A stretch of DNA of 10,376 nucleotides, from the IMG/VR virus record IMGVR_UViG_3300027706_000225, one strand, 5' to 3'. Positions within the stretch are counted from its first letter, which is position 1. Each line of letters starts with the position of its first letter. Position numbers and translations under genes: made by a program. Shown here piece by piece: positions 1 to 10,376 of the stretch. The notes beneath the pieces are model-generated. The model did not search any database, was not told where the DNA came from, and saw only the letters and a list, made by a program, of their open reading frames with translations. This DNA comes from a virus.

Positions 1-241
1 CCTTGATGTCCTCGTAGAAGAGGTGCTTCTCCTCGTGGTTGCCGAGGATGCAGGCGGGTTTCCCCTGTCTCATCTCGAGGCGCATCGCCAGGTCGACACA
101 GCCGGCGCTGTCAGGACCGCGGTCGATCAGGTCGCCCAAGAAGAGGACGTGATCCTCTGGGCGTGCCTGGCACTTGTCCAGCAGCTCTTCGGCTTCCTTC
201 AGGCAGCCGTGCAAATCCCCAACGAGAATCAGTCTCCCCAT
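1..241 (-). CDS. Ser/Thr protein phosphatase, PPP/calcineurin-like metallophosphoesterase (lambda-PPase / PrpA-like); partial, C-terminus beyond window start
   Basis: Minus-strand translation from ATG (241-239) reads MGRLILVGDLHGCLKEAEELLDKCQARPEDHVLFLGDLIDRGPDSAGCVDLAMRLEMRQGKPACILGNHEEKHLFYEDIK. It contains the three N-terminal metallophosphoesterase signature motifs GDxHG, GDxxDRG and GNHE, in the spacing typical of the family. The frame stays open to base 1. Confidence 0.85.
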   Translation of the reverse strand, partial: MGRLILVGDLHGCLKEAEELLDKCQARPEDHVLFLGDLIDRGPDSAGCVDLAMRLEMRQGKPACILGNHEEKHLFYEDIK

Positions 242-251
242 GATGGGGAGA
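233..251. repeat. Perfect 9-bp inverted repeat (tctccccat g atggggaga) centred on the phosphatase start codon
   Basis: Read directly: 233-241 tctccccat, spacer g at 242, 243-251 atggggaga. The arms are exact reverse complements. The minus-strand ATG (241-239) lies inside the left arm, and no SD is present upstream. Confidence 0.6.
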
Positions 252-256
252 TAGTA

Positions 257-421
257 CTACTTCTCTGCCCGGTGGTCAGCGAGGCACGTTTGCTCTGATT
301 CCGTCCCACAGTGCGGACAGGTGACCGTCACCTTGCACTTCTTGTGGTGGCCCTCGTAGAACCAGGTGCCGATCAACCAGACGAGGATCGCAGCGTCCAG
401 GACCGCAGTGAGAGCTTCCAT
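257..421 (-). CDS. Small membrane / zinc-ribbon-like protein (54 aa)
   Basis: Minus-strand ATG at 421-419 overlaps the upstream gene's TGA (423-421) as TGATG. Translation MEALTAVLDAAILVWLIGTWFYEGHHKKCKVTVTCPHCGTESEQTCLADHRAEK shows one hydrophobic helix followed by C-x6-C-x2-C-x6-C. The stop TAG at 259-257 lies 15 nt upstream of the phosphatase ATG. Confidence 0.5.
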   Translation of the reverse strand: MEALTAVLDAAILVWLIGTWFYEGHHKKCKVTVTCPHCGTESEQTCLADHRAEK

Positions 422-774
422 CAGTTCACCGCCAGGCGGTTCGTCGGCGGTGCGATGTCTCGGCTGAGGTCGATCCCTTTGTTGGGGGTGTTGAACGTTG
501 CATCGAACTCGATGACCTGCAGCGGCTCCGGCGGGAACTCGTCCAGGCGCCAGCCCGGGCCCTCCAGATGCTCGCGGCCCTTGGGCACGCCGAACTCCGG
601 CAGCGTCTCACGTTCGAAGATGTCATCGTCGTCCAACATCGTGACGTCGGACTCGCTGGCGAGCTGGGGCAGTGCACCCTTCGGCTTCGTCCCCCACTTG
701 CCGACGACGTACGCCAGCCACATGAAGCCAGCAAGGTAGAGCCACACCTGCACGCGGTCAATGAACTTCTTCAC
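421..774 (-). CDS. Hypothetical membrane-anchored protein (117 aa)
   Basis: GTG start (774-772) overlaps the upstream gene's TGA (773-771) as GTGA, with SD GGGAGAG 5 nt upstream. Translation VKKFIDRVQVWLYLAGFMWLAYVVGKWGTKPKG... has an N-terminal TM helix and an acidic stretch (MLDDDDIFERE). The same ORF in the 6-frame track (421..1164) is an over-extension through the upstream gene. Confidence 0.55.
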   Translation of the reverse strand: MKKFIDRVQVWLYLAGFMWLAYVVGKWGTKPKGALPQLASESDVTMLDDDDIFERETLPEFGVPKGREHLEGPGWRLDEFPPEPLQVIEFDATFNTPNKGIDLSRDIAPPTNRLAVN

Positions 775-1070
775 GTTGTCTCTCCCATGGCGATCACGTG
801 GTGGTGACCCTTGTTGACCCACACCAGCTCGAACGTAGTCCCGGGAGGCAGTGGGTTGGACGGTGCGAACGGAAACTCGAGGACGACATCGGTGTTGTTC
901 TGGCCCGACATCGCCTTGATGTGGACGGGCCACGGGTGAGCACGCTGGCTCGGCGCCAGCAGCTGGAGGTGATCGCCCAAACGTGGCCTGTGATCGTGCT
1001 GGTGGAAGTGGTGCGACGACCACTGCAGCTTTGCGGACACGATTGCTGGGACGGGGAGGGCGACTGCCAT
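771..1070 (-). CDS. His-rich small protein (99 aa), possible metal binding
   Basis: ATG at 1070-1068 reads MAVALPVPAIVSAKLQWSSHHFHQHDHRPRLGDH...VWVNKGHHHVIAMGETT, with strong GC3 bias (about 80%). The track's upstream extension to 1160 runs into the AT-rich repeat-bearing intergenic region and is unlikely to be coding. GGGAG lies about 15 nt upstream. Confidence 0.55.
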   Translation of the reverse strand: MAVALPVPAIVSAKLQWSSHHFHQHDHRPRLGDHLQLLAPSQRAHPWPVHIKAMSGQNNTDVVLEFPFAPSNPLPPGTTFELVWVNKGHHHVIAMGETT

Positions 1071-1215
1071 GGTTGTACGTATACTCCCATACACGAGTGT
1101 ATACTGCCATAGTATGCTTGAACGCCCATGGCATGCACTTGCTTTTGAGCAGTACGTCACTCACAATTGTTCACTCAGCGAAACGTTACGTTGCTTGCAT
1201 GATGCGGGTTTCAAG
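1071..1215. promoter_or_regulatory. AT-rich divergent intergenic region with two 13-bp direct repeats, GTATACTcCCATA (1079-1091) and GTATACTgCCATA (1099-1111), plus GTATAC/TACGTA palindromes
   Basis: GC content is visibly lower than the flanks. The repeats are spaced 20 bp apart, about two helical turns. The region sits between the divergent minus-strand 4-gene operon and the plus-strand endonuclease VII gene. No convincing -35/-10 could be called. Confidence 0.4.
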
Positions 1216-1635
1216 ATGACTCGCACTCCACTTCGACAATTCTTGTTGAATCGCGGTGTGCTTCGCCCCAACACTCATGGTGGGTGGATGTGTGTGAAAC
1301 GAAAACCGCGACAATGTGAGTACTGTCATAACGAGTACGTGCCTGTTTCACGTACGCAACGTTGGTGTAAGACCTGTTGTCCTACTCGAAAAGATGCAGG
1401 TAGAATGTCAACATATGGGCTAACAATCTCAGCCTTCAACGAGATGATGCTTCGCTCTAATGGACGATGCGAAATTTGCGGGGAATGTTTTTCTGATGTT
1501 CCTTGTATCGACCATGATCATGTCACCAAGCGCGTAAGAGGTTTGCTCTGCACACAGTGCAACTTGCGATTGGGACATGTTGAAGTAGGACCAGACTGGT
1601 ATGTCAAAGCAGCCGCGTATCTCCAACGAGCGTGA
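1216..1635 (+). CDS. Recombination endonuclease VII family protein (phage T4 gp49-like, Endonuclease_7 / HNH-type)
   Basis: Translation contains CEICGECFSDVPCIDHDHVTKRVRGLLCTQCNLRLG. This is the Endonuclease_7 signature: a C-x2-C and C-x2-C zinc knuckle flanking DHDH...RGLLC..CN..LG. An N-terminal C-x2-C/C-x3-CC cluster is also present (CEYCH...CKTCCP). Start ATG at 1216; the track's upstream extension lies in the AT-rich intergenic region. Confidence 0.85.
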   Translation: MTRTPLRQFLLNRGVLRPNTHGGWMCVKRKPRQCEYCHNEYVPVSRTQRWCKTCCPTRKDAGRMSTYGLTISAFNEMMLRSNGRCEICGECFSDVPCIDHDHVTKRVRGLLCTQCNLRLGHVEVGPDWYVKAAAYLQRA

Positions 1636-1891
1636 ACTTCCCTCCGATGTCCTCCAGTTCCTCCTGGACCACCCCGACGAGGTCCAGCACGTCCGCTACC
1701 GCATGAAAGACATGGAGGAACGGATGATGCGGCCGATTCGCGAGGAAGAGGAGAGGAAACGACGTGCAGCCCTTCCCCTCAAGAAGTGCACCGCCCTGCC
1801 CTACACCAACTGCCAGAACATGACGCCGGGAGGCTACATCTGTGATGACTGCGCAGCCGAGTATCGAGAAGACCCCGACGCTTTCAAGTGA
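1601..1891 (+). CDS. Small Cys-rich (zinc-ribbon-like) protein; start uncertain (ATG 1601 overlapping the EndoVII 3' end, or ATG 1703)
   Basis: High GC3 in this frame runs from at least 1631 to the TGA at 1889-1891. The C-terminal part reads KKCTALPYTNCQNMTPGGYICDDCAAEY, four Cys. The only in-frame ATGs are at 1601 (35-nt overlap with the endonuclease gene) and 1703. Confidence 0.4.
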   Translation: MSKQPRISNERELPSDVLQFLLDHPDEVQHVRYRMKDMEERMMRPIREEEERKRRAALPLKKCTALPYTNCQNMTPGGYICDDCAAEYREDPDAFK

Positions 1892-1925
1892 GCCGTTCGA
1901 CCTCGACGCCCTTGAACGAGAGGTC

Positions 1926-2249
1926 ATGCGACGGGCTGACTCCATGACGCCCGAGCTGCTGCCTCGCCTGCTCATGGCGTTGCTCAAACGTGACTCGTTG
2001 GTCTACTGCGAGCGGCACATGACGAAGCTGTTCCCGTACATCCGAGCCCAGATCAGCCTGACCCGGGCCCGACGGAACTACTACCGGGACGATTGGGTTC
2101 AACCCTGCTCCCAAGACGCATCGCTTTACGGCATCGTCAGCTCGCCGGTCAGCACTGAGCGGCTGTACAAGATGGCACTTGAACACCGAGACAGAGTCCG
2201 CCAAGAATATCGGTCAACACCGTGCGTCTGCTTCCAGCCGCACCGCTAA
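1926..2249 (+). CDS. Hypothetical protein (107 aa; alternative start ATG 1842 would give 135 aa)
   Basis: ATG 1926 is preceded by GAGAGG 4 nt upstream, and the frame shows GC3 bias. ATG 1842 would overlap the previous gene by about 50 nt. Stop TAA at 2247-2249. Confidence 0.45.
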   Translation: MRRADSMTPELLPRLLMALLKRDSLVYCERHMTKLFPYIRAQISLTRARRNYYRDDWVQPCSQDASLYGIVSSPVSTERLYKMALEHRDRVRQEYRSTPCVCFQPHR

Positions 2250-2265
2250 CCCAAGGAACGACATC

Positions 2266-2673
2266 ATGAGCGAGAACGAGAACCAGGAACAGGCATCCGA
2301 GACGGTGCAGACGGAGAAGGAGAGCGCCGTCAACAGCATGCTCTCCGCGATCGCGTCGCGCATCAAGGACAGCAACCCCGAGGTCGTGGAACGCTGGCAG
2401 GACGCCCAGGTCGAGAAGGAAGTCTCCACGAGGGTGGACCTGCTCGACAAGGCGATGCAACGCCGGTTCCAGTGCCTCACCGAGCTCAACAAGGTCAACC
2501 GCCCCGACAACGAGACGTTCAACGCCGACGGCTCGCGGGCCAGCGCCTCCTACTCGAAGGACCGCCTCAAGGCGATCAAGGACGCGAAGGAAGCGCTCGC
2601 CAAGGTGGAGCACGCCCTCGAGAAGGCGTTGGTCCACAACGAGTGGCAGAAGATCAAGGAGCTCAAGGGCTGA
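2266..2673 (+). CDS. Hypothetical acidic, predicted helical protein (135 aa)
   Basis: ATG 2266 with AAGGAA 8 nt upstream. Translation MSENENQEQASETVQTEKES...ALAKVEHALEKALVHNEWQKIKELKG is E/K-rich and predicted helical. Stop TGA at 2671-2673. Confidence 0.65.
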   Translation: MSENENQEQASETVQTEKESAVNSMLSAIASRIKDSNPEVVERWQDAQVEKEVSTRVDLLDKAMQRRFQCLTELNKVNRPDNETFNADGSRASASYSKDRLKAIKDAKEALAKVEHALEKALVHNEWQKIKELKG

Positions 2674-2700
2674 ACAAGCCCCCGCGGCGGGCAGTACAAT
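2671..2700 (+). promoter_or_regulatory. Candidate sigma70-like promoter TGAACA-N18-TACAAT giving a leaderless transcript at ATG 2708
   Basis: TGAACA at 2671-2676 and TACAAT at 2695-2700. The -10 ends 7 nt before ATG 2708, which has no SD. This is consistent with the leaderless mRNAs common in high-GC Gram-positives. Confidence 0.3.
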
Positions 2701-2707
2701 CTGCCGC

Positions 2708-3070
2708 ATGACAGACGACGAAGCGAAGACACTGAGGGCGGCGCTCGATGAGAACGTCGCCCTTCGTGACAACTTGAGGTCGACACAGGAGCGGTGCAGC
2801 GCGCTGCTCACCGAGAACCGGGCCCTTCGCCACCAGCTCGCGACGATGAAGCTGCGGTGGCTCCAGCTGCTGGAGATGCCGTGCTGGGAGCCGGGACCCG
2901 ATGATGGTACGCTCGTCTTGAACTACGAGGTCAAGCACGGCGACCACAAGGACAACCGGATCATCATCGAACGAGACGTCAGCCCGCCGTCGCACCGTTG
3001 CGTCGAGAGCGGGCACTCGTACGGGCACGGAGACACCTGCTACTACTGCGGGCACAAGGACGAGACATGA
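2708..3070 (+). CDS. Hypothetical protein with N-terminal coiled coil and C-terminal Cys/His cluster (120 aa)
   Basis: ATG 2708. Translation reads LRAALDENVALRDNLRSTQERCSALLTENRALRHQLATMKLRW then ...HRCVESGHSYGHGDTCYYCGH. The stop TGA (3068-3070) overlaps the next ATG as ATGA. Confidence 0.55.
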   Translation: MTDDEAKTLRAALDENVALRDNLRSTQERCSALLTENRALRHQLATMKLRWLQLLEMPCWEPGPDDGTLVLNYEVKHGDHKDNRIIIERDVSPPSHRCVESGHSYGHGDTCYYCGHKDET

Positions 3071-3615
3071 GCGAAGACATCAAGTGGGTCAAGCCCTGGT
3101 GCAAGATGAACCTCGACGAGCTGGAGGATTACCGCGGCTTCGTCGTCGCCGTTCATCCGGAACACGGCATCATCAACGCTGCACGGAACGTCGCCACGCT
3201 GCACGAGCAGCTGGAGTTCACGAAGCGGAAGGTGCGAGCAAAGGTCGCCGTCGTCTACACCAGCGACTACCTGCCCCCGCTCGACGATGCTCGCATGGAG
3301 GATGACGACGGCGAAGAGCCGGTGCCCGAGGATCCGGATCCCCCGCCCCCGCTCGCTCCTCCCGTCGATCTCTTCGACACGACCGAGATCACGCTCGACG
3401 GTTCACGGCACCCTGAGGCTCCGATCGAGGCCGAACACGGTCTCGCCCCTCTTCCCAACGATGGCCCGGGACCCGAAAAGGCCACACCGTTCCCCAGCAA
3501 GGACCCCCAGCCGCCCTTCACGCCCCGCCGTGACCTCAGCAACCTGAGGGTCGATGGGGTCATGCACCCGGGTGCCCGAGGTTCCTGGGGCGGGCGTGGT
3601 CCTCGGTACGACTGA
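3067..3615 (+). CDS. Hypothetical protein with Pro/Asp/Glu-rich low-complexity C-terminal half (182 aa)
   Basis: ATG 3067-3069 overlaps the upstream stop (ATGA). Translation MSEDIKWVKPWCKMNLDELEDYRGFVVAVHPEHGIINAARN... is followed by EDPDPPPPLAPPVD...PQPPFTPRRD. The track's start at 2998 is an upstream over-extension. Confidence 0.6.
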   Translation: MSEDIKWVKPWCKMNLDELEDYRGFVVAVHPEHGIINAARNVATLHEQLEFTKRKVRAKVAVVYTSDYLPPLDDARMEDDDGEEPVPEDPDPPPPLAPPVDLFDTTEITLDGSRHPEAPIEAEHGLAPLPNDGPGPEKATPFPSKDPQPPFTPRRDLSNLRVDGVMHPGARGSWGGRGPRYD

Positions 3616-4200
3616 CCTAGTTAACATGTGACTTGGCACGTTTACGTTGACTGGACGCTTGAGGAGACGCCTCGACCATTTTACGTGGGAAAGGGCACTC
3701 CAGATCGTCTTCGAAAGAAGCAACGTAACATCGTTCACTCTCGCATCGCGAAAAAGTACGGCATGCGACGCGAGGTTGTGTTGACAACTGATGTTGAGCG
3801 TCAAGCGCTTGATGTCGAAGTTCAACTCATTCAAGAACATCGCACGTTTGTGGACGGCGGTACTGGTTGGTGGGGCGCCAATCTTACGTTGGGTGGCGAG
3901 GGCGTTTCGGGCACACACATCAACAAGGGTCGAACGTTCAGCGCCGAACATCGTCAAAAACTCAGTCAAGCTCGTCGTGGCAGGGCGCCTTGGAACAAAG
4001 GACAGCAAAACGTCTACACGGATGAAGCCCTTGCCAAGATCAAGAAAGCACGTTCACGTCAAGTCACATCAACGGAAACGAAGCAGAAGATTGCTGACGG
4101 TGTCCGTCGTTCATGGAGCAAACGATGCGACTGACAATGGGACAGCTTCGAAAACTTCTGCGTGAAGTAGGGGCAAATAATTCGTGGCCGGGCCAGCCGT
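3616..4200 (+). mobile_element. Second low-GC island carrying a free-standing GIY-YIG homing endonuclease gene
   Basis: Composition drops to roughly 50% GC from about 3616 to about 4200. The island holds a single endonuclease ORF inserted between two ORFs of the plus-strand block. Confidence 0.45.
3628..4134 (+). CDS. GIY-YIG homing endonuclease with C-terminal NUMOD3 DNA-binding repeats (I-TevI / Seg-like)
   Basis: The N-terminus VTWHVYVDWTLEETPRPFYVGKGTPDRLRKKQRN...LIQEH...N..GG matches the GIY-x10-YIG, conserved Arg, catalytic Glu and Asn architecture. The C-terminus has two NUMOD3-like repeats, GRTFSAEHRQKLSQARRG and TSTETKQKIADGVRRSW. The only available start is GTG 3628, and the SD is weak. 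Confidence 0.8.
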   Translation: MTWHVYVDWTLEETPRPFYVGKGTPDRLRKKQRNIVHSRIAKKYGMRREVVLTTDVERQALDVEVQLIQEHRTFVDGGTGWWGANLTLGGEGVSGTHINKGRTFSAEHRQKLSQARRGRAPWNKGQQNVYTDEALAKIKKARSRQVTSTETKQKIADGVRRSWSKRCD

Positions 4201-4454
4201 ATGGTCGGAGCGTGACATCGCCCGACATCAACTCACGCGAACAGCTGGGCGCGATCTCGGCGAAGGCTATCGACACCGTGGCAGACCCGGACGGTCTGCC
4301 CGATCACCTGCTCGAACCCCAGGTGGACCCCGAGGACTGCTTTGGTCCCGTTCCACCCGATGCAGAGCCCCCGTACGTGGGGCAAGATCCCTTCGCTCGG
4401 GACGTCAGCCCGAACCCGACTGGCACCATCAAGCGCGGTCCTACGCGCGTCTGA
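4137..4454 (+). CDS. Hypothetical protein (105 aa); start uncertain
   Basis: The frame is open with high GC3 after the first dozen or so codons. It ends at TGA 4452-4454, overlapping the convergent minus-strand gene by 14 nt. The first 60 nt are still low-GC and may belong to the endonuclease island. Confidence 0.3.
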   Translation: MGQLRKLLREVGANNSWPGQPYGRSVTSPDINSREQLGAISAKAIDTVADPDGLPDHLLEPQVDPEDCFGPVPPDAEPPYVGQDPFARDVSPNPTGTIKRGPTRV

Positions 4455-4788
4455 CCTCGGCGTCGAGGCGGTCCCGTTCCCAAGTCCGTTGCCGCTCTTC
4501 CCAGACGGGATCAGCGATGCGACGGATCCATCCAAACTTCCCTTCGTGCCAGGCGAGTCGTGCAGAGGCTCCGAGGAGCAGGAAGCGCCAGTGACCGACG
4601 AATGCATTCCTGGGCTCTGGAACGTACTCTTTGCCGATGACAGTCCAGGGAGTCTCGCTCTCCCAGAAGACCGGGTTGGGGTCGGTGAACAGCGGCTTGT
4701 CTCCCTCGACCTTCTCGCGGACGAAGAAGAACATCATGCCCGGGTAGATGTCCTCGTGGTTCAGCTGCTCACGTTCGGGGAAGTTCAT
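4441..4788 (-). CDS. Hypothetical protein (115 aa)
   Basis: ATG 4788-4786 with GGAGGA about 12 nt upstream. Strong GC3 bias. Translation reads MNFPEREQLNHEDIYPGMMFFFVREKVEGDKPLFTDPNPVFWESETPWTVIGKEY... It overlaps the upstream gene by 20 nt. Confidence 0.6.
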   Translation of the reverse strand: MNFPEREQLNHEDIYPGMMFFFVREKVEGDKPLFTDPNPVFWESETPWTVIGKEYVPEPRNAFVGHWRFLLLGASARLAWHEGKFGWIRRIADPVWEERQRTWERDRLDAEVRRA

Positions 4789-5116
4789 CGTCCGTCACGT
4801 CCTCCATGCCCTGCTGGCGTGCGAACTCACGGATGAAGTTATCAAAAGCGAGGCGGATGACGCCGAGGTCGACCAGCGTCACCTTGCGCAGCTCGTGGTC
4901 TGACCACGAGAGCGTGTTGATGGCGGTGCCCAATGGGCGCTGGAAGTCAAATGCGGGTCGCAGCATCAGCCGCGTGTGTTCGGTGGACGGGTTGCCCGGT
5001 GTGATCGGGGGACTGGTCTCGATCTTCTTGGACATCACCTGGTAGATGATGTGGTTCTTCAGGGTCGTATGCTCGGTCTGCTTGCCCGTCCACACGACGA
5101 GGTCGCCCTCATTCAC
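4769..5116 (-). CDS. Hypothetical protein (115 aa)
   Basis: GTG 5116-5114 overlaps the stop of the upstream gene (GTGAATGA), with GAGAGG about 9 nt upstream. Very high GC3. The track's start at 5212 would overlap the upstream gene by about 100 nt. Confidence 0.5.
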   Translation of the reverse strand: MNEGDLVVWTGKQTEHTTLKNHIIYQVMSKKIETSPPITPGNPSTEHTRLMLRPAFDFQRPLGTAINTLSWSDHELRKVTLVDLGVIRLAFDNFIREFARQQGMEDVTDDELPRT

Positions 5117-5399
5117 GGTCCATGCCTCTCGAGATAGCGATGTCCCTGATGATGTTGCCGAGTTGCTGGTAAGCTGTGCCGAGTTGGACAAGGTCAGGCG
5201 CCTCCACTTCATGCCATTGTACCCTCTTGTCCCGCAAGACGCTGGGTCCTGTCACCGTCCACACGGGTTCGAGCCAGATGTAGGCACCCGCTGCTTTCTT
5301 GACCCGCCACAGGACACCCTCTCCAGCGCCATTGAATCGTGCCATGGTGACTATGTCCCCGGGCTGGTAGGGGTTTTCTCGAGGGCGGTTGGTGGGCAC
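5109..5399 (-). CDS. Hypothetical small protein (96 aa)
   Basis: GTG 5399-5397 sits 4 nt after the map stop, with GGAG about 10 nt upstream. An alternative ATG lies about 57 nt downstream. GC3 is moderate, about 69%. Translation reads ...PGDIVTMARFNGAGEGVLWRVKKAAGAYIWLEPVWTVTG... Confidence 0.45.
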   Translation of the reverse strand: MPTNRPRENPYQPGDIVTMARFNGAGEGVLWRVKKAAGAYIWLEPVWTVTGPSVLRDKRVQWHEVEAPDLVQLGTAYQQLGNIIRDIAISRGMDRE

Positions 5400-5403
5400 G
5401 GTC

Positions 5404-6171
5404 CTAGCTCCTAGAGGCTGCCGCGGTCCTTCCTATCAGGGGCAGCGTCAGCACCTCGTAACCCGTCTCAGTCACCAGCACCGTGTGTTCGAACTGCGCT
5501 GACAACGAGCCATCGACGGTACGAACCGTCCACTGGTCAGCGTCGATCGTGATGTCGGCAGTGCCCAGGTTGATCATGGGCTCGATTGTGAACGTCATGC
5601 CAGGGACCAGGATGGGCCCGCCGGTGTGAGCGAAGTGGTTGACGTGGAGCTTGTTGTCATGGAAGATGCGGCCGATGCCGTGGCCACCGAACTCCCGGAC
5701 CACGCTGCACCCGTTGACGTTGGCCAGGCGTTGGATCTCGTTACCCACTGCATTGAGGGGTGCACCCGGTTTGACTTGTTGGATGCCAGCCAACATCGCT
5801 GAGTGGGTGACAGTGATCAACCTCATCGCCTCATCTGAGACCCGTCCGACAGCGACGGTGGCGTTGCAGTCGCCGAAGTGGCCGTCCAGGATCGTCGTCA
5901 CGTCGATGTTGACGATGTCGCCTTCCTTGAGGACGTAGGGACCCGGGATGCCGTGACAGACCACGTCGTTGACGCTGGTGCAGCAGGACTTGGGAAAGCC
6001 TCGATAGTTGAGGGGCGCCGGGCGGCCTCCCCTTCTCACTGTGTCATTGTGGACGATCCGGTCGATGTCTGCTGTCGTCATCCCCGGCCTCACCGAGGTG
6101 CAGGCGAGGTGCAGGGTCTGGGCCGCGTGGCGGCAGGCGGCACGCATCTTGGCGATGTCTATGGGTTGCAT
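5404..6171 (-). CDS. map: Type I methionine aminopeptidase
   Basis: The translation contains the full MetAP-I motif set: VCHGIP, GDIVNIDV, DGHFGD, GHGIGRIFHD, FTIEPM and QFEHT, which supply the five metal-ligand residues D, D, H, E, E. Length 255 aa. AAGGAG sits 6 nt upstream of ATG 6171. Confidence 0.9.
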   Translation of the reverse strand: MQPIDIAKMRAACRHAAQTLHLACTSVRPGMTTADIDRIVHNDTVRRGGRPAPLNYRGFPKSCCTSVNDVVCHGIPGPYVLKEGDIVNIDVTTILDGHFGDCNATVAVGRVSDEAMRLITVTHSAMLAGIQQVKPGAPLNAVGNEIQRLANVNGCSVVREFGGHGIGRIFHDNKLHVNHFAHTGGPILVPGMTFTIEPMINLGTADITIDADQWTVRTVDGSLSAQFEHTVLVTETGYEVLTLPLIGRTAAASRS

Positions 6172-6524
6172 GCTAGCTCCTTGATCTCCTCACGCAGCTT
6201 GTCGATCTCGGGATCGGGCCGCCACAGCCATCCTACCGCCTCGATGTCCTCGAAGTGGAAGATCTTGCACGACGGCAGATGGAGCAGCAACGCGGGCCAC
6301 TTGCGGAACACCTCGCGGTCGAAGGTGCTGTCGGTCTCTGGGCACTCGCCCCACGAGGCGATGACCAGCCAGAGGTCGCCGTACTCCAACATGATCCGGT
6401 GGTCACTGATGTCGAACCGGGAGTTGGGCACTCGCCACAGGCCGTTGTGGTCAGCATCTTCTCTGAGCTCGGTGGAGGTCAGCAGCTCGCCGGGGATGGC
6501 GTACATAGGAGCGCTTAGGGGCAT
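6159..6524 (-). CDS. Hypothetical protein (121 aa)
   Basis: ATG 6524-6522. The last 13 nt overlap the map start (ATGCAACCCATAG). Translation reads ...LWLVIASWGECPETDSTFDREVFRKWPALLLHLPSCKIFHFEDIEAVGWLWRPD... Confidence 0.55.
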   Translation of the reverse strand: MPLSAPMYAIPGELLTSTELREDADHNGLWRVPNSRFDISDHRIMLEYGDLWLVIASWGECPETDSTFDREVFRKWPALLLHLPSCKIFHFEDIEAVGWLWRPDPEIDKLREEIKELACNP

Positions 6525-6769
6525 GGCACGTAATCCCGGACGTCGTACCAGCCCATCGTGTTGTTGCCGAGAGACACCAGCAAAGCATCCTCCAGGAACT
6601 TGTCAAACCCAATGATCAATGCGACTTCGTTCTTCTGGCTGTACCTCAGGATGCGACCCTTGTTTCCCGGTGAGGTCCGGAAGGAGTGACCCGGTTCAAG
6701 CAGGACCAGGTCACCCGGCCGGGGTGCTCCGCTCTCCGCAAAGAGGCGAACCTTCTTGGTCCGGGTCAT
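6515..6769 (-). CDS. Hypothetical protein (84 aa)
   Basis: ATG 6769-6767 with GGGAGCAGG immediately upstream. Translation reads MTRTKKVRLFAESGAPRPGDLVLLEPGHSFRTSPGNKGRILRYSQKNEVALIIGFDKFLE... It overlaps the downstream gene by 10 nt. The track's TTG start at 6808 lies inside the upstream hairpin and is less likely. Confidence 0.5.
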   Translation of the reverse strand: MTRTKKVRLFAESGAPRPGDLVLLEPGHSFRTSPGNKGRILRYSQKNEVALIIGFDKFLEDALLVSLGNNTMGWYDVRDYVPCP

Positions 6770-6790
6770 CCTGCTCCCATTTAACGGCAT

Positions 6791-6822
6791 CAGGCCGCCC
6801 CAGGACAACCCAGAGCGGCCTG
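6791..6822 (-). terminator. GC-rich hairpin (8-bp stem caggccgc/gcggcctg, 16-nt loop) 19 nt downstream of the flotillin stop; putative intrinsic terminator without a clear U-tract
   Basis: Arms at 6791-6798 and 6815-6822 are exact reverse complements, extendable by G-U and C-G pairs. The hairpin sits in the only sizeable intergenic gap of this minus-strand block. Confidence 0.35.
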
Positions 6823-6840
6823 AATGGAGTCACCTACTGG

Positions 6841-8796
6841 TCAGTCGGACGACTTCTCGGACGGCTTCCGGGCACCGTTGCCGTTGGCCTTGGGCTCGTG
6901 CTTGTCGCCCGTGATCAGGTTGGCGAGTAGGACGCTGGCGAGGTTGTTGATGCCGCCGCCTCCGCCCTCACCGCCACCACCTGCGACGATCTGCGGGACG
7001 AGCGGGTGCTTGCCGTTGGCGAGAGCCCGAGCGACCTCGATCGTGGCGTAGTTGGTCTGGTCGACGGCGAGCGCCTTGGCCTTGATGACCTCGGCTTCCG
7101 CCTGACCGACTGCGGTGATGCTCTTGCCGTTGGCTTCGCCGGTCATCTGGATGACCTTCGCATCGGCCTCAGCCTGGACCGTCTTCGCTGCGGCTTCCGC
7201 CTGGGCGTTGACCGTCTTCACCTTGGCCTGGGCCTCGGCCTTGACGACGTCCATGTCGGCGCTGGCCTTGGCGTTGATGACCATCGACCGCGAGTCACCT
7301 TCCGCCTTCTTCACGGCCTGCTGGGCCTCGAACTCGGCGATGGCGACCTTCCGTTCGGCGTCGACGACCTTGGCCTGCGTGGCGGCAGTCGCCTTCGCCT
7401 GCTCGAGGTCCTTGCGCTTCTCCTCGGCGAGGCGCTGGGTCTCGAAGGTCATCTGCTCCTGCTCGGCGATCTTGCGATCGGTGAGGGTCTTCATCAGCTC
7501 CTTCGGCGGCGTGATGTCACCGATGAGAGTGTCGACGGCGACGACGTTGTAGTCGGCCAACGCCTTGCTGATGGCGTTCTTGGCGTCGTCCTGGCGGTTC
7601 TTGCGGTCACCGAGGAACTTGATGACGTCCGAACCCTGAGCGGCGTTGCGGAAGTAGTTGCCGATCGTCGGCTCCAGGACCTGGGTGACCAGGTTGGCGA
7701 CGTTGCCGAAGCGAGCGATCACCTTCGGAGCGTCCGTCCTGGGGATGTGGATGATCTGCGAGACGTCCAGGTTGAACGTGAACCCGTCGTTGGACCGCAC
7801 CGTGATGGTGCTGAGGTTCTTGTCCAGCATGTGAGCCTCGGTCTTGCCGGTCGCCCAGTTCAGGACGATGTTAGCCGTCGGCACGCTCTCGACCCGGTGG
7901 GTGTACGGGTTGATCGGATAGCGACCGGGATCGAGGGGCTCGGCCCAGACGCCCTTCTCACCCTTGCTGACGAGGTTGCCGTGCTTGAAGGCCTCACCGG
8001 TGACATCGACGCCGGGTTTGCCGACGAAGGCGATGACGCAGCCGGCGTGAGCGATGGGCACCTCGGTCATGTCGACTTCCTCGACCGTGGCGAACAGTGG
8101 GTTGATGAAGTACCGTCCCGCCAGGATCACCTGCTCTTGCAGGCCCTTCTTCCCTCCGTTGTCGAGGAAGATCTGCGGGTTCTGGTACATGTTGTGTCCG
8201 GAGATCTCGGGACCCGCGATGTCACCGGTGTCGAGGGGCGTGCCCTCCTTGGTGGTGACGACGCCGACCTTGTTGTCCTTGATCTCGGTGCAGTTGCAGA
8301 GGTTGACCTCGAACAGGCCGGTGTTGATGCGGTACTGCCCGGGCGGGATGATGGCGAGCTGTGGACCACGTTCGCCGCCGCCCAGCAGGAACTGACGAGC
8401 GTTCTGGAACGAGTCGCACTCGACCGTCTTGCCGAGGATGCGCCCGCCGCTGATCGCCTTGCCATCGCGGCTGGTGACGACGCCGAGCTTTCCACGCTCG
8501 ATGGTGATGAACTTCTGGATGTCGATCTGGTACTGCCAGGGCCACAGACCGAAGTGGATGCCCGGGGGCAGGGTGTCGGCTTGGACACCGGCCTCACCGT
8601 TGAGAGCGACGATCGCTCCGTCGGGGAGTGCCTTGTTGGCGCCGAAGAGGACGAACTTCTTGGTGACGATGCCGATGGCGTCTTCGGGGATGCTGACCAT
8701 CCCGAACAGCCTCAGCACGAGCCGGTGCAGGACCAGCGCGAGGAGGACGAGGATGCCTCCGACGATGAGGGGCAGGTGGGAAACGACGGATTCCAT
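6841..8796 (-). CDS. Flotillin-family SPFH (band 7) domain protein, YqiK-like (651 aa)
   Basis: ATG 8796. The protein has an N-terminal TM helix (LPLIVGGILVLLALVLHRLVL), an SPFH core (STITVRSNDGFTFNLDVSQIIHIPRTD...RKNRQDDAKNAISKALADYNVVAVDTLIGDITPP) and a long flotillin-type EA/AK-rich coiled coil (AKATAATQAKVVDAERKVAIAEFEAQQAVKKAEGD...AEAQAKVKTVNAQAEAAAKTVQAEADAK). A Gly-rich tail follows (GGGGEGGGGG). Confidence 0.8.
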   Translation of the reverse strand: MESVVSHLPLIVGGILVLLALVLHRLVLRLFGMVSIPEDAIGIVTKKFVLFGANKALPDGAIVALNGEAGVQADTLPPGIHFGLWPWQYQIDIQKFITIERGKLGVVTSRDGKAISGGRILGKTVECDSFQNARQFLLGGGERGPQLAIIPPGQYRINTGLFEVNLCNCTEIKDNKVGVVTTKEGTPLDTGDIAGPEISGHNMYQNPQIFLDNGGKKGLQEQVILAGRYFINPLFATVEEVDMTEVPIAHAGCVIAFVGKPGVDVTGEAFKHGNLVSKGEKGVWAEPLDPGRYPINPYTHRVESVPTANIVLNWATGKTEAHMLDKNLSTITVRSNDGFTFNLDVSQIIHIPRTDAPKVIARFGNVANLVTQVLEPTIGNYFRNAAQGSDVIKFLGDRKNRQDDAKNAISKALADYNVVAVDTLIGDITPPKELMKTLTDRKIAEQEQMTFETQRLAEEKRKDLEQAKATAATQAKVVDAERKVAIAEFEAQQAVKKAEGDSRSMVINAKASADMDVVKAEAQAKVKTVNAQAEAAAKTVQAEADAKVIQMTGEANGKSITAVGQAEAEVIKAKALAVDQTNYATIEVARALANGKHPLVPQIVAGGGGEGGGGGINNLASVLLANLITGDKHEPKANGNGARKPSEKSSD

Positions 8797-8869
8797 GTGT
8801 TCTTTCTTCTTTCAGATGTGCGAAAGCCCCGGCCGCCACAAGGACGACCGAGGCTGTTCGCGGTTGGGA

Positions 8870-10376
8870 TCAGGCTCGGGCCGACCGGCTCGCGCCGTTC
8901 GAGGCCTCGGTGCCCTTGGTCAGGGTGGCGAGCTGGTTGCCCAGCACGGTGCCCTTGAGCAGCTCGTTGAAGATCTCGGCGACGCCCTTCTTGCCACCGC
9001 CGATGATGGCCAGGGGCGCCATCGCTTCGGCGAGCTTCTCGGCGAGAGCCTTGTCTCCGAAGGCCTGGAGAGCCGCGATGAACGCCGGTTCGATGGCCTT
9101 GCCCTTGTCGACCGTGGCTTGGACCTGGGCCGCGAGCTTCTCGAGCTCGAGCGCCTGGAGCTGGGCCTGGTGAGCACGTTCCGAAGCCTGGCGGGCTTCC
9201 TGGGTCGCCAACTCGAGAGCCGCGACTTCCGCCGCAGCCTTCTCGTTCGCCAGGTTGTTGGCCGCACGGGCCGCGTTCGCCGCCGCTTCCGCAGCGAGCT
9301 GGTCGGCCTGCTGCTTGGCGTTGTTGGCGATGAGCGAGAGGTCGAGAGCGAGCTTCCGCTCCGCGTTGATGCGCTGCAGCTCGAGGGTGGCGCGCTGCGT
9401 CTCCGCACGGGCCTCCTCGGTCGCACGCTTCAGCTCCTCGGTCTCCTTCACGAAGTCCAGCTTGCGCCGCTCTTCCGCGAGGACGAGGGTGTTCTGGATG
9501 ACGGACCGCTGCGCGGCGACGAGGAGCTTCTCGACGTCGGCATTCTGCATCTCGATGCCGAGGACCTCGGCGTCGTAGATCCGCATGTTGTTCTCGGGGA
9601 ACACCGTGCCGGTGCGGGCCTCGTCCTTCGAGTGCTTGGCACCGAGGATGATGTCCCGGAGGATCGGGGTGTGGTTGCCGTAGAACTCCTCGATGCCCAG
9701 CTTCTGCACCGCCGAGCGGATGCGAGACCGCATCGCGTCGCAGAGGAACTTGACGTAGTTGTCCACCGCGAACCAGCGCTCGGGGTTGTCACCCTCGAAG
9801 TTGACGCGGTAGGAGACCTTGACGTTGAGGCGGCAGAAGTCCTTGGTCTCGACCTGGATGACGTCGCTGACCATGTTGTTGGCGACCTGCAGGTACACGT
9901 CGCGCTTCAGCTGGTCGGTCGACTTCGGCTTGCCCGTCGAGAGCGAGAGGACCTGCGGGTTCTCGTCGTACTCGAGCATGTAGGTGCCCGGACCCTGGAT
10001 GACCCGGCGCTGGCCGCCCTTGCTGACGAGCAGCATGGCGTAGCCGGTCCAGAGCGTCACGGCGACGGCGCCGTCGTACTTGGTGTTGAGGATGACCGAA
10101 CGCGGAGCGGTGAACTTCGACTTGCGGTCGAAGGCGTCGCCCGGCAGCGCGTTGCTGGCGTTCTTGATCAGGACGCGGCCGCGAGAGAACTCCCTTAGGA
10201 AGCGCGGGATCGTCGTCCGGTCGCGCTCGCCATAGAGCCAGCTCGGGCGGATGACCGTCAGCGGCAGTTTGCCCGCGTCGGCGAGGTCCCAGAGAATGCG
10301 CTCGCAGTCGACCTTGCTGCGGGTGTAGTAATCCATGAACCAGACGTTCTGTCCCAGGGGCTCGGACTCGTCCACA
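8870..10376 (-). CDS. SPFH-like domain protein with C-terminal Ala/Glu-rich coiled coil; partial. The N-terminal visible part resembles the C-terminal half of an extended-SDR NAD-dependent epimerase/dehydratase
   Basis: The frame is open from the window end to TGA 8872-8870. The SPFH-like core reads VIQVETKDFCRLNVKVSYRVNFEGD...MRSRIRSAVQKLGIEEF...LRDIILGA, preceded by a hydrophobic segment (AVAVTLWTGYAMLLV). The coiled coil reads KLDFVKETEELKRATEEARAETQRATLELQRINAERK...LAAEAAANAARAANNLANEKAAAEVAALE. The visible N-terminal 110 aa carry YTRSK...LPLTVIRPSWLYGERD...IPRFLREFSRG, an SDR-like Y-x3-K / YG / IPxFI pattern. Confidence 0.7.
   Translation of the reverse strand, partial: VDESEPLGQNVWFMDYYTRSKVDCERILWDLADAGKLPLTVIRPSWLYGERDRTTIPRFLREFSRGRVLIKNASNALPGDAFDRKSKFTAPRSVILNTKYDGAVAVTLWTGYAMLLVSKGGQRRVIQGPGTYMLEYDENPQVLSLSTGKPKSTDQLKRDVYLQVANNMVSDVIQVETKDFCRLNVKVSYRVNFEGDNPERWFAVDNYVKFLCDAMRSRIRSAVQKLGIEEFYGNHTPILRDIILGAKHSKDEARTGTVFPENNMRIYDAEVLGIEMQNADVEKLLVAAQRSVIQNTLVLAEERRKLDFVKETEELKRATEEARAETQRATLELQRINAERKLALDLSLIANNAKQQADQLAAEAAANAARAANNLANEKAAAEVAALELATQEARQASERAHQAQLQALELEKLAAQVQATVDKGKAIEPAFIAALQAFGDKALAEKLAEAMAPLAIIGGGKKGVAEIFNELLKGTVLGNQLATLTKGTEASNGASRSARA

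Follow-up and report, generated by a model that had tools for sequence, protein, structure and literature searches.

We analysed a stretch of 10,376 nucleotides (nt) of IMG/VR virus record IMGVR_UViG_3300027706_000225, hereafter called the window, which opens with a string of minus-strand genes for three small proteins, D, C and B, and a metallophosphatase (A). One of the small proteins, C, recurs beside this phosphatase in related phages, and we ask here what that pairing may mean. Individual related contigs or loci are labelled L001, L003 and so on. The gene order in the window is D, C, B, phosphatase:

771..1070, minus strand: gene D, 99 amino acids (aa), ATG start, 11 His; small soluble protein
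421..774, minus strand: gene C, 117 aa, GTG start
257..421, minus strand: gene B, 54 aa
2..241, minus strand: phosphatase A, first 80 codons, ATG at 241-239, cut by the window edge

The layout given in the first-pass annotation is present in the sequence: four minus-strand genes in which the D stop TGA overlaps the C start GTG (GTGA at 771-774), the C stop overlaps the B start (TGATG at 419-423) and 15 nt (242-256) separate the B stop from the phosphatase ATG. The full-length phosphatase has 257 aa (L001:9986-10759). On L001 there is an overlap between its stop codon and the start of the next gene, which is GT2-like; the co-directional string therefore runs past the window edge and the unit is not one of four genes. 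For the L001/L005 pair (dS about 0.5-0.6), the ratio of non-synonymous to synonymous substitution rates (dN/dS) came to 0.20 in D, 0.07 in C and 0.02 in the phosphatase, and B showed 2 synonymous and 0 non-synonymous differences from strain L009. The coding signal of the small open reading frames (ORFs) was thus confirmed by the ratios for D and C and, for B, by homologues at 64% and 53% identity. All four ORFs are real genes with homologues in related phages, and D, C and the phosphatase are under purifying selection. The public gene call for D uses an internal TTG start and gives 69 aa; we kept the 99-aa reading because the first 30 residues are conserved among homologues. A 247-aa ORF at 421-1164 and several antisense ORFs were rejected, since the conserved C GTG at the D stop and frame-specific conservation account for the region.

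The neighbourhood was surveyed from both sides. In the phosphatase-side survey, which carries no bias towards C, IMG/VR and JGI metagenomes were scanned and hidden Markov models (HMMs) were then run over the flanks, yielding 22 independent lineages; C lay upstream in 11-13 of these and D in about 7. Phosphatases with C upstream were found on L003-L008, L011, L013-L015, L021, L043, L045, L049, L053, L056, L059, L061 and L066, and L022 carries a phosphatase without C. The C-side survey took in close relatives as well as remote members of the family (E 1e-7 to 1e-25), and here a Metallophos gene stood 0-3 genes downstream on every contig with enough sequence; C without a downstream phosphatase was not seen wherever sequence sufficed. 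B was found in 3 lineages in all (the window clade, L015 and L021), always directly before the phosphatase. C and B are therefore recurrent neighbours of the enzyme, and the refuting finding named in the first-pass annotation, small ORFs without conservation beside the phosphatase, did not emerge. The stoichiometric co-expression of all four genes that had been proposed did not hold up, with B in 3 lineages, D in roughly one-third and C missing at about 40% of phosphatases.

The junctions between these genes are often tight. D and C overlap or abut in at least eight lineages, meeting at GTGA or ATGA in seven and separated by a 1-nt gap in L008. Where C directly precedes the phosphatase, the junction reads AACTGAcATG in L019, L053 and L056 and TGAccATG in L061, and B joins the phosphatase through TAATG in L015. 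The proposed operon therefore stands in part: the overlap coupling of D and C is kept, whereas the D/C/B set varies and the phosphatase is joined to a further downstream gene. In a neighbour-joining (NJ) tree, the root of the phage phosphatase clade has C-bearing lineages on either side, which argues that the pairing is old, and it persists down to about 35% identity in C. From tree and gene order, the C-phosphatase pairing is old and was lost repeatedly, the four-gene set of the window being one variant of a flexible cassette. The cassette consists of accessory genes common to one clade of uncultured, mostly soil huge phages; its constant element is the phosphatase, and the small genes upstream vary.

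Two further small families, both without annotation, occupy the position before the phosphatase. Family E (60-81 aa, a (F/Y)GT(R/Q)G motif) lies directly upstream of the enzyme in several lineages that lack C. Family F (90-100 aa) is a membrane protein with one strongly hydrophobic helix. A GIY-YIG endonuclease gene (L020) and a reverse-strand gene (L013) are also inserted between C and the phosphatase. The sites are:

L007:1094-1336, L013:656-898, L015:1002-1184, L027:3249-3494, L048 and L065: family E
L015:707-979, L021:2981-3283 and L059: family F

Beyond this clade, a search of 185,579 species genomes returned no C, and tblastn of C against 50,697 phage records gave no match. Scanning IMG/VR with patterns back-translated from individual C or D sequences returned nothing; the 37-member C alignment was too diverse for such a scan. 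Among the cultured-phage records searched, no partner family D, C or B turned up, C being the only one searched directly. The partner families are previously undescribed, are unannotated in Pfam or PHROGs and were seen only in phage and metagenome contigs.

The partner proteins C, B and D

The C family comprises 32 representative clusters, all of 61-166 aa, with a conserved N-terminal helix, an acidic linker that is variable or missing, and a conserved C-terminal tail. The tail reads PL+VI.FD.TFN...D[IV]A.P..KLDVN-COOH, and the protein ends exactly at ...KLDVN. Sequence and profile searches with C against Pfam, PHROGs, NCBIfam and the PDB gave nothing above threshold. An AlphaFold2 model had a mean predicted local distance difference test score of 58 overall, too low to support searching for similar folds, and was confident for helix 2-27 only. 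A confident model limited to the helix, together with a strongly conserved tail, is the pattern of a docking peptide. Eukaryotic PPP phosphatase regulatory subunits dock through short linear motifs, the RVxF partners of PP1 being an example, and C resembles them by analogy in being largely unstructured in the model with a short conserved tail. The [RK]-[VI]-[IV]-x-F stretch of most C members fits a loose RVxF pattern; the C of the window itself differs, with Q for R/K, and a match to so degenerate a pattern may be chance. Bacterial-type PPPs are not known to possess a PP1 docking groove.

Membrane character was assessed by the best 19-residue Kyte-Doolittle window, for which we set a cut-off of 1.6. 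C, which had been described as a transmembrane protein, scored 1.26 in the window, and only 1 of 37 family members reached 1.6 or more; in most members the helix carries Arg, His or Asp. Judged by its sequence, C is probably not a membrane protein. B scored 1.87 in the window and 1.68 and 2.55 in its two homologues, all above the cut-off, and looks like a single-pass membrane protein. With C below the cut-off, the two tiny membrane proteins of the first-pass annotation come down to one.

In B, the hydrophobic helix is followed by EGHHK and four cysteines (C29, C35, C38 and C46). The homologues, L015:1190-1363 and L021:3259-3495, come from two distant lineages, are 64% and 53% identical, respectively, and lie immediately upstream of the phosphatase; D9, W15, EGHHK and the four cysteines are invariant in all three. 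Matches to zinc-binding families (Pfam/NCBIfam DUF7577 and YnfU) were weak and under their cut-offs, PHROGs gave nothing above threshold for B, and sequence and profile searches of the PDB gave nothing. Of the description of B as a transmembrane zinc-ribbon micro-protein, hydropathy bears out the membrane part; zinc binding is a possibility, with four invariant cysteines and zinc families that match only below cut-off.

D does have the 99 aa and 11 His for which it had been called histidine-rich, but only one subclade shows this richness. Residues 19-27, the His-rich loop, are missing in L007-, L003-, L011-, L015- and L021-type homologues, only H90 is invariant, and the loop is the least confident part of the structural model. 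Searches of Pfam, PHROGs, NCBIfam and the PDB by sequence or profile gave nothing above threshold for D. The model, built from a six-sequence alignment, shows a six-stranded beta-barrel that superposes on the domain II or III barrel of EF-Tu/eIF2-gamma, and its best viral matches are giant-virus translation GTPases. D is thus predicted to have a beta-barrel fold of the translation-factor type. It differs from the barrels of translational GTPases (eIF2-gamma, EF-Tu, EF1A, SelB) in standing alone as 99 aa without a GTPase domain, the identity being 7-21% with no match found at the sequence level.

The phosphatase and its relatives

The 80-aa phosphatase fragment of the window matched Pfam Metallophos PF00149 with 55.5 bits (cut-off 21.5, E 1.4e-14). 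GDLHG, GDLIDRG, GNHE, VHAG and GHS do not vary across nine phage sequences, nor do any of the metal and phosphate ligand motifs of the PPP family. By these motifs, the enzyme is a PPP-family metallophosphatase with an intact catalytic site; it is of the bacterial type. The first-pass annotation called it a PPP Ser/Thr phosphatase and pointed to lambda-type phosphatases of phages; family membership was confirmed while a specific likeness to lambda was not, as Trypanosoma brucei 2qjc and the Myxococcota enzymes are nearer. The N-terminal 80 aa, when scanned, matched PHROG 246, 'NinI-like serine-threonine phosphatase', at E 4e-19. The lambda protein phosphatase (NinI / ORF221, PHROG 246; 1g5b) is likewise phage-encoded, single-domain and equipped with GDxHG, GDxxDRG and GNHE; similarity to it is limited to residues 5-72 (E 3e-5). 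Among cultured phages, the closest phosphatase homologues were those of Sinorhizobium phiM12 and phiN3, at 27-28% identity.

A possible reading, to which we give somewhat less than even weight, is that the enzyme is a nucleotide or RNA-end hydrolase (ApaH-like Np4N hydrolysis, Np4A-cap removal or PnkP-like healing of 2',3'-phosphate ends) and no protein phosphatase, and that the cassette acts on alarmones or RNA instead of phospho-signalling. Among relatives of solved structure, the T. brucei ApaH-like phosphatase (ALPH) 2qjc comes first (E 5e-28, residues 2-227), followed by the Clostridium PnkP phosphatase domain 4j6o, and the enzyme that decaps trypanosome mRNA is ALPH1 (PMC8220851, PMC10415143). 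The best NCBIfam model was ApaH PRK00166, with Pnkp and then PrpE behind it. The (I/L/V)D(S/T)G motif that serves to tell bacterial PPP protein phosphatases from ApaH (PMC2887360) reads LDGG or IDGG throughout the phage clade, with Gly in place of Ser/Thr. The predicted barrel of D, a fold often in contact with RNA, would suit the same reading. On the other side, the NCBIfam scores fall far short of their cut-offs, with 91.5 bits against 176 for PRK00166, 46.4 against 222.85 for TIGR00668 (ApaH), 65.9 against 750 for TIGR04075 (Pnkp) and, in another case, 59 against 340, so the enzyme does not qualify as an equivalog of ApaH, PrpE, Pnkp or PrpA/B. ALPHs are defined by an altered GDxxDRG in which the second Asp is neutral and Arg is changed to Lys (PMC8220851); 2qjc has GDLVNKG, whereas the phage enzyme keeps GDLIDRG. 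There is no end-healing kinase or ligase domain or gene nearby, and in vitro, members of this bacterial PPP group are often active on phospho-Tyr/Ser/Thr (PMC2887360).

Membership of three known families was consequently rejected: that of ApaH on the scores of PRK00166 and TIGR00668, that of ALPH on the retained GDLIDRG although 2qjc is the best solved relative, and that of Pnkp because the 257-aa protein has the phosphatase domain only and no gene for a kinase or ligase is found close by.

The cellular genes closest to it lie on the chromosomes of Myxococcota (Myxococcus, Archangium, Pyxidicoccus, Corallococcus and Cystobacter; L072-L151), which are 46-52% identical over the full length and form the sister group of the phage clade in the NJ tree. 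These enzymes of the COG0639 group (PPP/ApaH-like) have a C-terminal tail in common with the phage protein (VHGDVSVFS versus IHNDVSTFS or GVGTY); they differ in their length of about 232 aa and in having IDTG where the phage enzyme has (L/I)DGG. None of the Myxococcota orthologues has C, D, B, E, F or K as a neighbour, which marks the partners as a phage addition. M. xanthus has five such phosphatases, including an 'ApaH-like phosphatase PrpA' (PMC8220851, citing ref. 59); the literature on phage ApaH-like phosphatases and on M. xanthus Pph2/PrpA gave general context only. The sister relation tentatively points to a host or gene-exchange link with Myxococcota, the host assignment being tentative because the phage contigs span 36-62% GC.

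Expression signals and the relation of C to the phosphatase

The features that bear on expression, with the insertion next to D, are:

251..256, minus strand: -10-like hexamer TACTAT, 9 nt upstream of the phosphatase ATG; TACAAT or TAGAAT in relatives
233..251, minus strand: palindrome UCUCCCCAU-C-AUGGGGAGA, enclosing the phosphatase start codon
1072..1635, plus strand: endonuclease VII insertion of the homing-endonuclease type (Pfam PF02945, E 9e-15)
1079-1091 and 1099-1111: two 13-nt direct repeats GTATACT(C/G)CCATA, 20 nt apart, within the endonuclease insert

The hexamer is conserved 7-10 nt before the phosphatase ATG in L003, L004, L005, L007, L008, L011, L022, L045 and L059, and the gene has no Shine-Dalgarno sequence. 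A box of its own and the lack of a Shine-Dalgarno sequence suggest that the phosphatase probably opens a second expression unit together with the genes downstream of it. A scan for the sigma-70 consensus found nothing upstream of D or of the phosphatase. The promoter-like element before the phosphatase further weakens the idea of stoichiometric co-expression.

The hexamer is also part of a folded element. In most lineages it forms the loop of a 5-8 bp hairpin, and in the window and L005 the 3' arm of the hairpin pairs instead with codons 2-3 and encloses the AUG. The 51 nt around the palindrome gave -18.9 kcal/mol (z -2.4), with the same fold in L005 (z -3.3). The hairpin that holds the hexamer in its loop shows compensatory changes: paired cells make up 97%, covariation is seen in 4 of the 6 pairs, and the score was attained by 0 of 500 shuffles. 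An element of this kind (a G+C-rich stem of 5-8 bp around the loop TA(C/G)AAT, then 0-3 nt and an ATG) recurs in the clade, again with compensatory changes in the stems, with 7 sites in 126 kb against 1.4 expected, 7 of 7 abutting a start codon. The sites are:

window 2690-2707 (plus strand), L003:5980-5997, L004:5982-5999, L007:1349-1368, L045:2300-2321, L059, L011 and L022 (minus strand, 1587): clade element

Three roles are conceivable for it: presenting a promoter for leaderless mRNAs on a hairpin, acting as a translational operator, or marking a processing site.

The repeat-bearing divergent region at 1071-1215 had been named as the driver of the operon. The repeats are real, with 0.04 matches expected on average in shuffles, but the region lies inside the endonuclease VII insert, whose GC content is 47-50% against 60-65% in the flanks. 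In L009, a strain 98% identical, the insert is missing and 59 nt stand in its place (L009:277-335), which identifies the region as part of a low-GC mobile insertion. As a clade-wide promoter motif the 13-nt repeat failed, occurring in no related locus and only in this insert. The ancestral intergenic region, seen in L009 and five other lineages, carries a pair of TACACT boxes placed back to back, with 6-7 nt between each box and its ATG. This is the geometry expected for leaderless transcripts and suggests a leaderless D-C mRNA.

The second 13-nt repeat overlaps an 11-nt near-copy of the D start junction: the junction is ACTGCCATGGT (1063-1073), and the near-copy ACTGCCATAGT (1103-1113) lies 40 nt inside the insert. 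The insertion took the place of the D promoter region, and a 96-aa gene (1601-1891) gained a new N-terminus.

These elements can be assembled into a model, about evenly balanced in our judgement between holding and failing, in which the phosphatase is an effector with C as its bound partner while B and D are optional. D and C would be transcribed from the divergent region, and the phosphatase and its downstream genes from their own TAC(A/T)AT box; on read-through RNA, the phosphatase AUG would be locked in the hairpin. The phosphatase would take phosphate off Ser/Thr/Tyr phosphoproteins of the host, off dinucleoside polyphosphates or off the 5' ends of RNA. C would be made alongside it and may bind it through the conserved, otherwise unstructured tail as a regulatory, inhibitory or targeting subunit. 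B could serve as an optional membrane-anchored zinc-binding adaptor, and D, likewise optional, could join C as a beta-barrel partner; E and F would be further optional adaptors. A substrate of the nucleotide or RNA kind can coexist with this model, and equally with an adjacency that is merely inherited.

Several observations weigh against a bound partnership. About 40% of orthologous phosphatases have no detectable C, and the Myxococcota enzymes do without one. The substrate class is divided, HMM scores leaning towards ApaH/ALPH models and motif criteria towards protein phosphatases. In the window subclade, the promoter-like element stands between C and the phosphatase. Moreover, the genomes that carry C all come from a single phage clade whose backbone is broadly collinear and in which IF-1 and Gp23-like genes also remain nearby, and with backbone and flanks syntenic the adjacency could be inherited rather than selected.

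The main rival reading, which we consider rather unlikely, is that D-C and the phosphatase are separate units without a common function, held next to each other by the conserved backbone of the clade. It would account for the promoter-like hexamer right before an ATG without a Shine-Dalgarno sequence in seven or more lineages, for the unrelated insertions that the slot between C and the phosphatase accepts (B, E, F, the GIY-YIG gene of L020 and the reverse-strand gene of L013), for the synteny of the flanking genes as well and for the lineages that lack C. It sits less easily with the C stop 1-2 nt ahead of the phosphatase ATG in L019, L053, L056 and L061, with a pairing kept to about 35% C identity on both sides of the clade root, and with the fact that every C, where sequence sufficed, had a phosphatase downstream. 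Were the adjacency merely inherited synteny, the cassette would be an ordinary block of hypothetical phage genes.

The first-pass annotation had proposed a membrane-associated phospho-signalling or anti-host module, which in explicit form would have the phosphatase held at the membrane by two small proteins and reversing a kinase-based host defence. B passes the hydropathy cut-off and has a juxtamembrane cluster of basic residues and cysteines, the membrane family F fills the slot in L015, L021 and L059, and the nearest cellular relatives are in Myxococcota, which are rich in Ser/Thr kinases (PMC2887360). PADLOC, run on seven cassette proteins, gave no match for D, C, B, the phosphatase, the GT2 protein or the basic protein encoded downstream, and a single chance-level match for a Cys-rich protein. 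C is not a membrane protein at the family level, B and F are limited to few lineages, and the surrounding genes include neither a kinase nor an FHA or other signalling partner. With no PADLOC model matched, nothing identifies the cassette as a defence system and the proposal stays a guess, and we regard it as very unlikely.

Phage PPP phosphatases have been known since lambda, and their targets and partners are mostly unknown. The cassette offers a concrete pairing: one phosphatase clade, the recurrent partner C and a handful of optional partners. If C does regulate the enzyme as a bound partner, it would be a new type of phosphatase regulator and a handle on how huge soil phages engage host phosphorylation or nucleotide signalling. 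The Myxococcota sister relation gives this uncultured clade an initial lead towards a host or a gene-exchange partner. A broader version, which we hold to be quite unlikely, would make C the first representative of a family of regulatory subunits, specific to phages, for bacterial-type PPPs, docking through the PL[RK][VI][IV]xFD strand and the invariant C-terminal DVN so as to inhibit or target the enzyme, with B, D, E and F as interchangeable adaptors by which huge phages, possibly of Myxococcota, rewrite host phosphorylation. By analogy, such a family would be the viral or prokaryotic counterpart to the logic of PP1 and PP2A, with one catalytic subunit and many regulators.

The source phage and neighbouring genes

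L001, the 32.9-kb ENA contig k141_609427, is 100% identical to window 1-10186, and the C and B proteins are residue-for-residue identical on it. The last 190 nt of the window (10187-10376) are unmatched by L001 and give a vault-like ORF an added N-terminus that is weakly NAD-epimerase-like; they represent either a different assembly or a chimeric contig end. IMG/VR relatives include contigs of 72, 340 and 369 kb. Given relatives of 340-369 kb and a gene content with vault, SPFH and IF-1 genes, the window belongs to an uncultured huge phage whose clade is mostly soil-derived. Megablast of window 1-2500 against 50,697 phage records gave no match, and Rfam and tRNA scans of the window returned nothing.

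Downstream of the phosphatase, several lineages have a very basic, highly conserved 51-64 aa protein (MSQ.D+AKKKAKAKTS..W.RDRMNETHRKG+...) joined by a TGATG overlap (L003:6804-6965, L004:6774-6950, L007:2178-2333 and L001:12733-12909). In the genome of the window, the GT2-like gene and two others are inserted between the phosphatase and this gene, and a Cys-rich protein of 127-135 aa travels with the phosphatase/basic-protein block.

Elsewhere in the window lie the following genes:

3628-4134, plus strand: second low-GC (52-53%) mobile-type endonuclease gene, with a NUMOD3 motif and a GIY-YIG-like N-terminus
5404-6171, minus strand: methionine aminopeptidase
6841-8796, minus strand: 651-aa SPFH/Band 7 protein
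8870-10375, minus strand: protein with major-vault-protein shoulder and repeat domains (PF11978, E 3e-30)

The IF-1 gene is also present on the L001 contig, and in L020, GIY-YIG genes flank the phosphatase on both sides.

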